Below, piece after piece: positions 56,504-58,561 of a DNA stretch of 64,000 nucleotides (position 1 is its first letter; each line of letters starts with the position of its first letter). Source of the DNA: Candidatus Staskawiczbacteria bacterium (lineage in GTDB: Bacteria > Patescibacteriota > Minisyncoccia > Minisyncoccales > Staskawiczbacteraceae); assembly GCA_903928565.1 (NCBI GenBank), contig CAIYRH010000002.1:28-64027 (forward strand). The letters are read 5' to 3'. The position numbers were made by a program, and so were the translations under genes. The notes under the pieces were generated by a model that made no database searches, was not told the origin of the DNA, and saw nothing but the letters and a program-made list of their open reading frames with translations.

Positions 56504-58561
56504 ATGGATAAAAAAGAATTAGAACAAAGAATAAAAAAACTAAGGGAAACGATTAACCACCACCGTTATCTTTACCATGTGCAAGACCGGCAAGAAATTT
56601 CAGACTCGGCGCTGGACTCTTTAAAAAAAGAGCTTTTTGATTTAGAACAGCAAAACCCTGAATTAATAACACAAGATTCGCCAACGCAAAGAATTGGAGG
56701 CAAGCCCTTAAAAGAATTCAAAAAAATAAAGCACTCACAAAGAATGCTTTCTTTTAACGACGCTTTTTCAAAAGAAGACATGAAAGATTGGCAAGAAAGA
56801 TTTATGAAATTATTGTCGCCAATGGAAAAAGAAAAAGTAAATTTTTATTGCGAATTAAAAATTGATGGCCTGGCTATTGAGTTAATTTATAAGAATGGAA
56901 ATTTTATTACCGGAGCCACGCGAGGCGATGGCAATATTGGTGAAGACATTACGCAAAACTTAAAGACAGTTGAAGCCGTGCCGTTATCTCTTATCACTAC
57001 TCACTACCCACTACAACCTAATCTTGTTGCGCGGGGCGAGGTTTTTATAACAAAAAAAGAGTTTGCCAGAATAAATAAAATACAAAAGGAAAAAGGGTTG
57101 CCCGTTTATGCCAACCCACGAAACATTGCGGCAGGCTCGGTGAGGCAGTTAGACCCAAAAATTACAGCTGGCAGAAAGTTAGATTCTTTTGCATATGACT
57201 TAATTACAGAAACGCCCGAAACTCACGAAGAAAAGCACAAAATGCTAAAAGAGTTTGGCTTTAAAACTAATAAACATAATAAATTTTGTAAAAATTTAGA
57301 AGAAGTTTTTGAGTTTCGCGAGCATTGGATAAAAGAAAGAGAAAAATTAGATTATGAAATTGATGGCGTGGTGGTAATAATTAACAACAATAAAATTTTT
57401 GAAAAGTTAGGGGTGGTGGGTAAGGCCCCAAGGGGAGCAATTGCCTATAAATTTCCGCAGGCTGAAGCAACCACCAAAGTGCTTGATGTTAAGGTGCAAG
57501 TGGGCAGAACAGGTGCCATAACGCCAGTGGCGGTGCTTGAAGCTGTGCAAGTAACAGGTATTACAATTACCCGTGCAACTTTACACAACGAAGATGAAAT
57601 TAAAAGGTTGGGTTTGAAAATTGGCGACACGGTTATTGTTGGCAGGGCGGGTGATGTTATTCCAAATATTATAAAAGTTTTGCCCGAATTACGAACAGGC
57701 CACGAAAAACATTTTAAAATGCCAGAAAAATGCCCAAGTTGCGGTACCCTCCTTCGCCGAGGCTCCGGCGGGCAAGCAAAACTTGGTGGAGATAAGATTC
57801 TAAGGTGCTTAAATAAAAATTGCGCTGCAAAACAACGCCGAAATTTTTATCATTTTGTTTCACGTACTGCTTTTAATATAGATGGTTTGGGCCCCAAAAT
57901 TATTGATAAATTATTAGATTTTGGCTTAGTGTCTGATCCCGCAGATTTATTTGAACTTAGAGAAGGTGATATCGTGGTTGGAGAGAAAGACTCGCCCCGT
58001 CGGATGACGGGGTTTGCCGAAAAGTCGGCAGAAAATTTAATAAAATCTATTCAAGATAAAAGAGAAATTACTTTGGCTAAATTTATTTATGCTTTAGGCA
58101 TTAGAAATGTTGGCGAAGAGACAGCAATTGATTTGGCAAAACATTTTGGCAGTATCAAAAAAATAGAAACGGCAGAGCTGGAAGATTTTGATAAAATTTT
58201 AGATATTGGGCCGGTTGTTTCAAAATCAATTTATGAATGGTTTGCCGAAAAAAATAACATTAGATTTTTGGAGCGACTCCAAAAATCGGTAAAAATTCGC
58301 CCTGTGCAACAGGGCGCCCCGTCGAATGACGGGGTCAGTCTATCTGGAAAAACATTCGTTCTTACTGGTACCCTGGCAACTATGTCGCGCGACGAAGCCA
58401 AAGCAAAGATTCGCGAATTGGGCGGAGATGTTGCCGAATCGGTGTCTTCTAAAACCAGTTACGTTGTGGTAGGATCAGAACCAGGAAGCAAAGCCGAAAA
58501 AGCCCAAAAATTAGGTGTTAAAACTTTGTCCGAAAAAGAATTCTTAAATTTAATCAAATAA
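56504..58561 (+). CDS. ligA: NAD-dependent DNA ligase LigA
   Basis: Adenylation motif ELKIDGLAI, Zn-finger CPSCG...C..C, HhH repeats, BRCT ([10 protein letters not shown]). Contains repeat-derived in-frame segments. Confidence 0.95.
57995..58012. repeat. GC-rich hairpin in frame in ligA (copy 1)
   Basis: CCCCGTC-GGAT-GACGGGG. Confidence 0.65.
58298..58334. repeat. GC-rich twin hairpin in frame in ligA (copy 2)
   Basis: CGCCCTG-TGCAA-CAGGGCG directly followed by CCCCGTC-GAAT-GACGGGG. The second hairpin differs from 57995-58012 by one loop base. Confidence 0.7.

Follow-up and report, generated by a model that had tools for sequence, protein, structure and literature searches.

The ligA gene of a Candidatus Staskawiczbacteria genome, represented here by a 64-kb window (the whole stretch of DNA analysed), carries three short GC-rich segments that are read in frame as part of its NAD-dependent DNA ligase. 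The best explanation for these segments is that they belong to two families of short repeats, both present in AT-rich genomes of the Candidate Phyla Radiation (CPR/Patescibacteria), one being a hairpin or twin hairpin of 18-44 nt and the other a non-palindromic GC-rich repeat of ∼30 nt (family 2). Both are probably non-autonomous and act at the DNA level: copies would enter new sites and pass between lineages by recombination, selection would leave only those in in-frame loops, and AT-biased mutation would wear them down. That the repeated unit is DNA follows from where the same sequence turns up: in either orientation and more than one frame, at sites that are not homologous, in genes unrelated to one another and also outside genes. 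Intragenic copies that survive preserve the reading frame, avoid the frame that contains a stop codon and sit in coil or loop segments; the stems of the hairpins are maintained only through double Watson–Crick changes; and carriers and non-carriers of an insertion at any one ligA site are intermixed on the ortholog tree.

The ligA open reading frame (ORF) aligns over its full length with Escherichia coli LigA (2OWO; 586 bits), and its nearest relatives carry the name Candidatus Staskawiczbacteria LigA. Direct reading of the sequence placed the three ligA hairpins exactly where the preliminary description had put them, and the observation of hairpin copies in this gene is confirmed. The first 18-mer (CCCCGTCGGATGACGGGG) spans 57995-58012. 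The twin hairpin consists of an A' half, CGCCCTG-TGCAA-CAGGGCG (CGCCCTGTGCAACAGGGCG, 58298-58316), and a B half, CCCCGTC-GAAT-GACGGGG (CCCCGTCGAATGACGGGG, 58317-58334). The inserted DNA is 75-81% GC in a surrounding gene of 38% GC. With up to two mismatches allowed, the pattern CCCCGTCNNNNGACGGGG gives two matches where 0.02 are expected, and none of 100 shuffles reaches two; perfect hairpins with ≥ 7 bp of stem and ≥ 70% GC number four in the AT-rich 16-64 kb portion, three of them being those of ligA. Folded as single-stranded DNA (ssDNA), the twin hairpin has a free energy of -17.6 kcal/mol (z -5.9), which none of 200 shuffles matches, and the single 18-mer hairpin gives a z of -3.8. The two 18-mers differ in phase, being read as PRRMTG (phase 0) and (A)PSNDG (phase 1), and therefore it is the DNA and not the peptide that is repeated. 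Directly 3' of the first 18-mer (57995-58039), the conserved FAEKSAE codons form a small hairpin of their own, TGCCGA-AAAG-TCGGCA; that the 18-mer adjoins a pre-existing stem–loop may hint at a preference of insertion for hairpins.

The three segments were compared with 120 LigA orthologs (72-79% identity, modal length ∼663 aa). The columns holding RGSGGQA and DSPRRMTG of the window protein are filled in only 6-8 sequences. The Zn-finger patch is present in eight of the 120 orthologs and missing from L001-L012, while PRRM[TMA]G is found at the HhH site in five; this site is empty in L002-L017 and L155, and L001 shares the 18-mer copy with one stem mismatch. Against E. coli LigA, the Zn-finger and HhH segments face clean gaps of 7 and 8 residues respectively, and the HhH-BRCT linker is variable. 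Judged from these alignments, the Zn-finger and HhH segments are clearly lineage-specific insertions relative to orthologs, as had been proposed, whereas the linker twin hairpin appears to occupy a region of variable length rather than a clear insertion site, the linker of 17 aa being only ∼3 aa above the ortholog median of 14. In an AlphaFold2 model of LigA (60-sequence alignment, mean pLDDT 71, where pLDDT is the predicted local distance difference test), all three segments are coil with pLDDT < 50 and lie between secondary-structure elements: residues 421-430 at the tip of the Zn-finger β-hairpin, residues 492-502 between two HhH helices and residues 602-610 in the HhH-BRCT linker. The low pLDDT arises in part because the inserted columns are short of alignment depth. 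The model thus agrees with the loop placement put forward in the preliminary description, which had located the hairpins between the HhH and BRCT regions; this is correct for the twin hairpin, but the DSPRRMTG hairpin lies inside the HhH domain.

The phyletic distribution of these insertions is patchy. L001 (80% identical) shares the HhH copy and lacks the Zn-finger patch, L155 (78% identical) has the linker element with both the Zn and HhH sites empty, and all four combinations of presence and absence at the Zn and HhH sites occur, a violation of the four-gamete rule. On a neighbour-joining tree of 624 LigA columns, for which the insertion regions were masked, no carriers group together, and at minimum as many changes are needed as there are carriers (Zn 8/8, PRRM 5/5, linker-B 5/5, PVIR 7/7), counts that are upper bounds since the tree is star-like at 75-80% identity. 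The flanks of the Zn site show 0.60 identity between carriers and non-carriers as against 0.74-0.75 within each class. The permutation test of flank similarity was not significant as designed (p = 0.05-0.3), and the carrier versus non-carrier contrast is its one informative result. Patchy carriers with carrier-specific flanks fit either a transfer of filled alleles through recombination or repeated insertion at a specific site.

In order to follow the 18-mer beyond this lineage, the exact pattern CCCCGTCGRATGACGGGG was searched in one genome for each of 185,579 species, which returned at least 120 matching loci. Among the matches listed, at least 41 loci are CPR and at least 38 belong to AT-rich alphaproteobacterial or Rickettsiales-like metagenome-assembled genomes (MAGs); the remainder, mostly in high-GC genomes or in terminator-like hairpins, are plausibly chance matches. 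By our own estimate the chance count of the 18-mer over all CPR genomes in the collection would be < 0.1. The CPR carriers comprise Staskawicz-, Nealson-, Morani-, Wildermuth-, Doudna-, Magasaniki-, Uhr-, Kerfeld-, Giovannoni-, Niyogi-, Falkow- and Saccharibacteria as well as Paceibacterales. Thirteen of the 41 CPR copies listed lie deep in long ORFs with the frame kept, 12 have a tRNA gene no more than 150 nt away and two are terminator-like, so that the further copies anticipated in the preliminary description do exist. Their host genes, identified by Pfam, encode SecA, a GatA-type amidase, ATP synthase alpha (AtpA), GyrA, LeuRS, orotidine monophosphate decarboxylase (PyrF), a ComM-type Mg-chelatase, a prepilin peptidase and a GT4 glycosyltransferase. 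The 13 in-ORF copies among the matches listed use five of the six combinations of frame and orientation, and the only absent one (+, phase 2) contains a TGA stop; 10 of the 13 are in phase 1 and encode xPS[N/D/F/S]DGx, which is rich in turn formers. No frame-breaking copy was seen among the intragenic 18-mer copies examined.

The alphaproteobacterial matches have a different organization. The 18-mers there are mostly arranged as inverted pairs with starts ∼50-160 nt apart, most commonly 75 (32 of 55 matches are paired), and form both ends of a high-copy palindromic element of ∼95-165 bp that resembles a transposable element of the miniature inverted-repeat type (MITE) or a Rickettsia palindromic element (RPE). 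Only two of the 55 matches fall in long ORFs. In these AT-rich alphaproteobacterial MAGs, CAMDMO01 and other Rickettsiales-like ones among them, the 18-mer sits between TTGTCA and TCCAT; some of the species labels are doubtful. A phage vector was considered and rejected, the nine matches in viral contigs being terminator-like or of the alphaproteobacterial TGTCA type with no twin hairpin.

At no fewer than 24 loci the 18-mer (hairpin B) stands directly 3' of a second hairpin, A, with the consensus CGCCCGGTC-ATTC-GACCGGGCG. The A loop (ATTC) is the reverse complement of the B loop (GAAT), and the A and B stems are near-identical. Across 21 copies of the A stem, six of the nine base pairs change on both sides (30 cells), there is no one-sided change and pairing holds in 98.4% of cells. 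G-T/G-U intermediates are missing altogether, which speaks for a Watson–Crick constraint on DNA rather than for an RNA fold. Between A and B stands a dinucleotide that pairs with the border dinucleotide on either side, giving CG/CG/CG, CA/TG/CA or TG/CA/TG. Together, the Watson–Crick-only stems and the covariation of borders and middle suggest an enzyme that handles ssDNA hairpins. Against a covariance model (R1) derived from twin hairpins in other CPR phyla, window positions 58290-58342, including an ATTCG left flank, scored 50.7 bits (E ∼ 1e-11, rough calibration); the ligA twin hairpin is therefore a member, in which the A hairpin is remodelled yet still a perfect palindrome. The requirement for an exact 18-mer biases the derived model towards an invariant B hairpin. 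At the same ligA linker site, L154 (P0024) carries a canonical twin hairpin encoding PVIRPGAPSNDGA, and L155 (P0007) carries the variant of the window in a partly decayed state. A known RNA family was rejected as the identity of the twin hairpin, given that Rfam at the gathering threshold returned only tRNAs, both in the window and in 20 twin-hairpin loci.

A second setting of the twin hairpin is the neighbourhood of tRNA genes. Eleven or more loci show an intact tRNA followed 16-90 nt later by GGTTCG, the twin hairpin in either orientation and CGANTCC, and then by a near-exact copy of the 3' tail of the same tRNA, running from T-loop C56 to the 3' end. L034 has one such unit after tRNA-Val, where it is repeated in tandem, and another after tRNA-Met; the 40-nt spacer and the twin hairpin are the same in both, and the tail is in each case that of the preceding tRNA. 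The tRNA-linked copies are always preceded by TTCG or TTCA, with the middle dinucleotide covarying, whereas coding copies have no constant 5' tetranucleotide. An intron or insertion in the tRNA T-loop was rejected, as the arrangement is an intact tRNA followed by a pseudo-3'-half and excision in silico restored a tRNA recognized by ARAGORN in only 1 of 25 cases. In its behaviour the tRNA-linked unit resembles a mini-element that inserts at a specific site and leaves a 'target duplication' of ∼18-22 nt, the length of a 3' tRNA-derived fragment (tRF-3). Duplication of an attachment site by a tyrosine integrase is a poor fit because each element would need to carry the tail of each tRNA, and duplication of the DDE type is a poor fit because such duplications are far shorter; no obvious integrase was found by eye in part of a list of 86 neighbouring ORFs. 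A bolder proposal, which we regard as doubtful, is that the twin hairpin is the active module of a site-specific mobile mini-element found throughout the CPR, also in Omnitrophota and in a related form in Rickettsiales-like MAGs. Master copies would enter the tRNA T-loop (TTCR^A), regenerate the tRNA and duplicate its tail, with the target chosen by pairing of the central dinucleotide, and stray copies would seed loops in essential proteins across the radiation. If this were so, the mechanism of T-loop integration would match none of the known transposase or integrase families.

The third GC-rich patch of ligA, at the Zn-finger, belongs with a patch in gyrA (host identity from Pfam) that lies in a loop of the GyrA C-terminal domain. 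The two share sequence, as had been noted at the outset, and align together with elements of other loci (alignment A3), but the shared motif is not identical, differing by a 1-nt indel (GGCGGGCAAGC versus GGCAGGGCAAGC), and it is not palindromic. Neither the ligA Zn patch (z -0.03) nor the gyrA patch (z +2.1) folds better than its shuffles; a hairpin element was accordingly rejected for these sequences, and they constitute a separate, non-palindromic family. The Zn patch also aligns with insertions at three other ligA positions (L003 residue 105, the L009 linker and L008 residue 238, the last in reverse orientation and encoding a 10-aa peptide) and with an inter-tRNA spacer of a marine Patescibacterium. 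Among 116 GyrA orthologs, the inter-blade loop that holds the window patch ranges from ∼7 to 35 aa, and one 11-aa peptide type recurs at two further positions. Four GyrA orthologs (P0231, P0232, P0233 and P0237, of 1239 aa) are ∼390 aa longer and match Pfam PF14890, which suggests a gyrA intein in those Staskawiczbacteria-like lineages.

Insertions of this composition are not confined to the copies described so far. An unbiased test of indels in eight ortholog groups, taken from the window and from syntenic loci in metagenomes, compared 39 lineage-specific insertions of ≥ 4 aa with length-matched controls: 51% of the insertions as against 10.6% of the controls were ≥ 55% GC (Mann–Whitney p = 7e-6), and the insertions were also more stably folded (p = 0.0014). 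Other Staskawiczbacteria ligA genes (33-39% GC) carry sporadic insertions of 56-81% GC at different positions; many of these are hairpins or twin hairpins, and the linker insertion of L003 is a perfect 30-nt palindrome. Elsewhere in the window, the insertion LPLRGISR in valS falls in a 7-residue gap of Thermus ValRS (1GAX; fold z -2.0) and SAPDGPHQAGE in tsaD in a 10-residue gap of E. coli TsaD (4WQ5; fold z -1.6, weak). Both are encoded by twin hairpins that are unrelated in sequence to the 18-mer and alike in architecture. A different, longer palindromic repeat, GTCATTGCGAGGAGC...GCTCCTCGCAATGAC, is dispersed in L006 (2589, 6550, 12097) and L013 (1190, 15311), and the L006 ligA gene (10001-12091) holds at about residues 168-198 a related in-frame, GC-rich palindromic segment of ∼75 nt with arms TCATTGCGAGGAG...CTCGCTCGCAATGA, encoding ...SLRGGQQSDEAIQSESMGHRLPRSLRSLAMT.

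Table. Coordinates of the GC-rich elements in the window and of related loci in other genomes.
Feature	Position	Strand	Context
ligA (NAD-dependent DNA ligase, 685 aa)	56504..58561	+	host of three GC-rich insertions; ORF and LigA homology
Family-2 GC-rich repeat CTCCTTCGCCGAGGCTCCGGCGGGCAAGCA, 10 aa encoded	57749..57778	+	Zn-finger β-hairpin tip, net +7 aa
Single 18-mer hairpin, GACTCG + CCCCGTC-GGAT-GACGGGG, encodes DSPRRMTG, phase 0	57989..58012	+	HhH-domain loop, net +8 aa
Twin hairpin, 12 aa encoded	58298..58334	+	HhH-BRCT linker; A' and B halves, B in phase 1
Family-2 GC-rich repeat CCCGCCTCCGCTAAAGCTTCGGCAGGGCAAGCCCGGC, 12 aa encoded	10336..10372	+	gyrA; hypervariable inter-blade loop of GyrA C-terminal domain
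In-frame GC-rich twin hairpin in valS, CTCCC-TTCG-GGAG / TCCCCC-GTA-GGGGGA (+ strand), encodes LPLRGISR	17247..17278	-	
In-frame GC-rich twin hairpin in tsaD, encodes SAPDGPHQAGE	20169..20200	-	
tRNA-linked twin-hairpin loci	L034:1-470; L130:3557-3745; L103:7039-7200; L095:2409-2570; L032, L077, L082, L090, L115, L138 tRNA-proximal regions		
Alphaproteobacterial 18-mer loci	L065:4679-4771; L081:1641-1733; L089:4155-4247; L102:31-123 and 3397-3488; L114, L117, L124		

A DNA-level element suggests the following sequence of events. An existing hairpin module would be copied to a further position, probably by way of self-folding ssDNA that is processed by a trans-acting enzyme or a repair pathway encoded elsewhere. 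Homologous recombination would then carry filled alleles from one related lineage to another, and purifying selection would clear insertions unless they are in frame, free of stops and in loops. Old copies would decay under AT-biased mutation, as is seen in L001, in L155 and in the graded loop variants of GyrA, and the peptides PSNDG, PRRMTG and SGGQA would be by-products that happen to be rich in turn formers. The ortholog alignment, the further copies and the structural model all came out in favour of the initial interpretation, that of a palindromic element family residing in frame in loops. Several observations weigh against the account of DNA-level elements. Family 2 is not palindromic, so the label 'hairpin element' fails to cover all of the insertions. 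No transposase, integrase or REP-associated tyrosine transposase (RAYT; REP, repetitive extragenic palindrome) was found by Pfam in 20 ORFs of the window, and no TnpA of the IS200/IS605 type (IS, insertion sequence) in 1.27 Mb of fetched flanks, although this phmmer search of 5,423 ORF segments used approximate IS608 and IS200 TnpA queries and is weak. The ligA sites show no clean target-site duplications, and some codons beside the insertions are replaced by them as well. The density is low, with mostly one 18-mer per CPR locus among the matches listed and two exact copies in the 64-kb window. The star-like tree makes the counts of independent gains no better than maxima, and recurrence at the same site could come wholly from recombination of one old insertion. 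Lastly, the exact conservation of the 18-mer across phyla and the compensated stems could instead denote a functional protein-binding site.

This last point extends to functional nucleic-acid signals in general (protein-binding, DNA-uptake, pause/RNase or recombination sites placed where the protein tolerates them), which would account for an 18-mer identical across many CPR phyla, for strict compensatory change in the stems and for the precise, reproducible tie to tRNA 3' ends. DNA-uptake sequences in Neisseria and Haemophilus are enriched in genome-maintenance genes, and the hosts in the window, ligA and gyrA, are genes of this kind, with a type IV pilus/competence-like apparatus also encoded there. 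We nevertheless consider such signals unlikely, since the copies are sporadic among close relatives and decay where they are shared, two per 64 kb is far below the density of uptake sequences, and the copies occur in both orientations, in several frames and in metabolic and envelope genes too. Rather less probable is local de novo origin by template switching, quasi-palindrome correction or slippage at GC-rich spots, with the similarity between copies being convergent. The missing G-T stem intermediates are what intrastrand template switching predicts, the valS and tsaD twin hairpins are unrelated in sequence and the L003 linker insertion is a perfect palindrome, but convergence sits badly with identical 18-mers and 30-44-nt twin or family-2 units at non-homologous sites in unrelated genes of different phyla. 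The similarity between sites also exceeds what composition allows, both in the count of pattern matches and in the score against R1, and the estimated chance expectation of the 18-mer in CPR genomes is very small.

Adaptation at the level of the protein, in which loops such as PSNDG, PRRMTG and SGGQA are selected for flexibility or partner interaction and the DNA hairpin is incidental, would suit the location of the insertions in loops of multidomain enzymes and the predominance of the phase-1 peptide xPS(N/D)DGx. The same DNA, however, yields unrelated peptides elsewhere (PRRMTG, PRHSTG, PVIRRG, APSFDG), copies stand outside genes and beside tRNAs, and the closest relatives lack the insertions, which together make this account highly improbable. 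Even harder to credit is removal at the RNA or translation level, by mini-introns or by 'byp'-like bypass as in Magnusiomyces mitochondria, under which the frame would be irrelevant. The architecture does resemble the bypassed GC clusters of Magnusiomyces (PMC8811140), and near tRNAs the twin hairpin has a T-arm-like context. Yet the frame is kept with no stop in all 13 intragenic CPR copies listed and in all window copies, the stop-containing frame is absent and no frame-breaking copy came to light, shared copies gain amino-acid-changing substitutions as translated sequence does, and excision rarely restores a tRNA. An artefact of assembly or binning (a chimeric join or foreign GC-rich reads) would come to mind for a window taken from a MAG, but its probability is negligible given that the same insertions appear in independent JGI, ENA and NCBI assemblies, in frame and with colinear gene flanks. 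The DNA-level element thus remains the preferred explanation.

The window as a whole (∼35% GC) encodes FtsH, S1, GyrA, ValRS, TsaD, RecG, RecQ, a type IV pilus cluster, LigA, FtsW and an MmeI-like methyltransferase, and its tRNAs, gyrA, ligA and pilus genes give it a chromosomal context. The nearest non-identical proteins come from Candidatus Staskawiczbacteria MAGs (LigA 78-79%, GyrA ∼90% identity). Two further intergenic structures were observed: a GC-rich twin hairpin at 11657-11699 (z -3.3), followed by an A-run, after the ORF at 11076-11636, and at 12104-12134 a very strong hairpin with a 9-bp GC stem, a TTCG loop and the flanks TTTTTG...CAAAAA. These may be bidirectional terminators or intergenic members of the hairpin-element class. 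Two stretches (∼2900-5500 and 13200-15600) reach 46-55% GC in this 35% GC genome and hold long minus-strand ORFs (2923-4587, 4773-5483, 13259-13843 and 14025-15602), none of which matches Pfam; these stretches could represent foreign DNA or encode compositionally odd surface proteins. In TsaD, residues 79-117 (window 19904-20020) form a segment of ∼40 aa without an aligned counterpart in any solved TsaD (query 78-118 versus chain 68-71) and, not being GC-rich, is therefore a different kind of insertion. At 809-882 (-), ARAGORN called a tRNA-Ile with the anticodon TAT (UAU), adjoining tRNA-Val(GAC). AUA in bacteria is usually read by a lysidine-modified CAU tRNA, and a UAU tRNA is uncommon.

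Palindromic DNA that codes for protein has been regarded as a peculiarity of Rickettsia and some mitochondria, and to our knowledge almost nothing is known of the biology of mobile elements in CPR organisms. In the full-text literature searched, which for the most part excludes subscription journals, no description of such elements in CPR/Patescibacteria was found. If they are pervasive in the CPR, they would account for some of the many short, GC-rich, lineage-specific insertions that trouble alignment, phylogeny and structure prediction; half of the lineage-specific indels examined here are of the GC-rich type. They would also provide a natural experiment on how loops of LigA, GyrA, SecA, aminoacyl-tRNA synthetases and ATP synthase tolerate 6-14 extra residues, and the 18-mer with the twin hairpin would serve as a marker for recombination and horizontal exchange in uncultivated lineages. 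The tRNA-tail duplication and the Watson–Crick-compensated stems would further point to an activity that handles DNA hairpins.

Among known systems, RPEs are in-frame, fold-compatible palindromes in housekeeping genes (Ogata et al. 2000, 2002, as summarized in PMC10969869). The CPR elements are like RPEs in forming a palindromic family in an AT-rich, reduced genome, with many translated in-frame copies in unrelated genes and no known transposase (PMC10969869). Dispersed palindromic copies and in-frame, fold-compatible insertion in unrelated genes were indeed found in the CPR; the unit length, a conserved peptide and a Rickettsia host were not. RPEs measure ∼100-150 bp with a conserved peptide of 30-50 aa per family, whereas CPR units are 18-44 nt long and encode 6-14 aa in several frames. 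The host is CPR rather than Rickettsia, and the tRNA-linked form occurs in the CPR, membership being judged here against the description of RPEs. The Rickettsia parallel drawn in the preliminary description is hence sound as an analogy but not as membership, the CPR elements being 3-8 times shorter.

The GC clusters of yeast mitochondria are GC-rich palindromes of ∼30-50 nt in an AT-rich genome, with an in-frame polymorphism in var1 and spread by gene conversion (PMC8811140). Their 'merger and shuffling' into composites, comparable with the nested and twin hairpins of the ligA linker, and their fast loop change are further likenesses (PMC8811140), and a short GC-rich palindrome with in-frame presence/absence polymorphism in a coding gene is what was found here. 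The CPR elements differ in residing on a bacterial chromosome, in an 18-mer common to several phyla and apparently in having no AG/TAG terminal repeats; CG, CA or TG stands instead at both borders of the twin hairpin with the complement in the middle, the borders in ligA being blurred by replaced codons. REPs, together with the bacterial interspersed mosaic elements (BIMEs) and the REP doublets that form hairpins (REPINs), are imperfect palindromes of 20-40 nt, extragenic and present in hundreds of copies, whose inverted doublet is the mobile form and which have a cognate RAYT (Y1 HUH), the gene being typically flanked by REPs. The A plus B twin hairpin, in which B approximates the reverse complement of A, and the stem constraint at the DNA level are reminiscent of REPINs, whereas a third of the CPR copies are intragenic (13/41 listed), all window copies lie in ORFs, the density is low and neither RAYT nor TnpA was detected in the window ORFs or, with approximate queries, in the 1.27 Mb of flanks. 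The palindrome-associated transposable elements (PATEs) of the IS200/IS605 group similarly have hairpin ends and lack classical terminal inverted repeats. They insert 3' of a particular tetra- or pentanucleotide that pairs with a guide beside the hairpin foot, as the tRNA-linked copies may do, and the three-way covariation of borders and middle (CG/CG/CG, CA/TG/CA) resembles guide–target pairing; the CPR element is far shorter, however, no TnpA was detected in the DNA searched, and a tRNA-tail duplication of ∼18-22 nt is foreign to PATEs. As for MITEs, which derive from a parent IS and have terminal inverted repeats and a short target-site duplication, inverted symmetry is present and a duplicated border dinucleotide is possible, but a parent IS was not found. 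The mini-elements of ligA and the CPR belong to none of RPEs, yeast GC clusters or REPs. In their way of working they resemble RPEs, in size and composition the nearest are yeast mitochondrial GC clusters, and the twin layout recalls REPINs.

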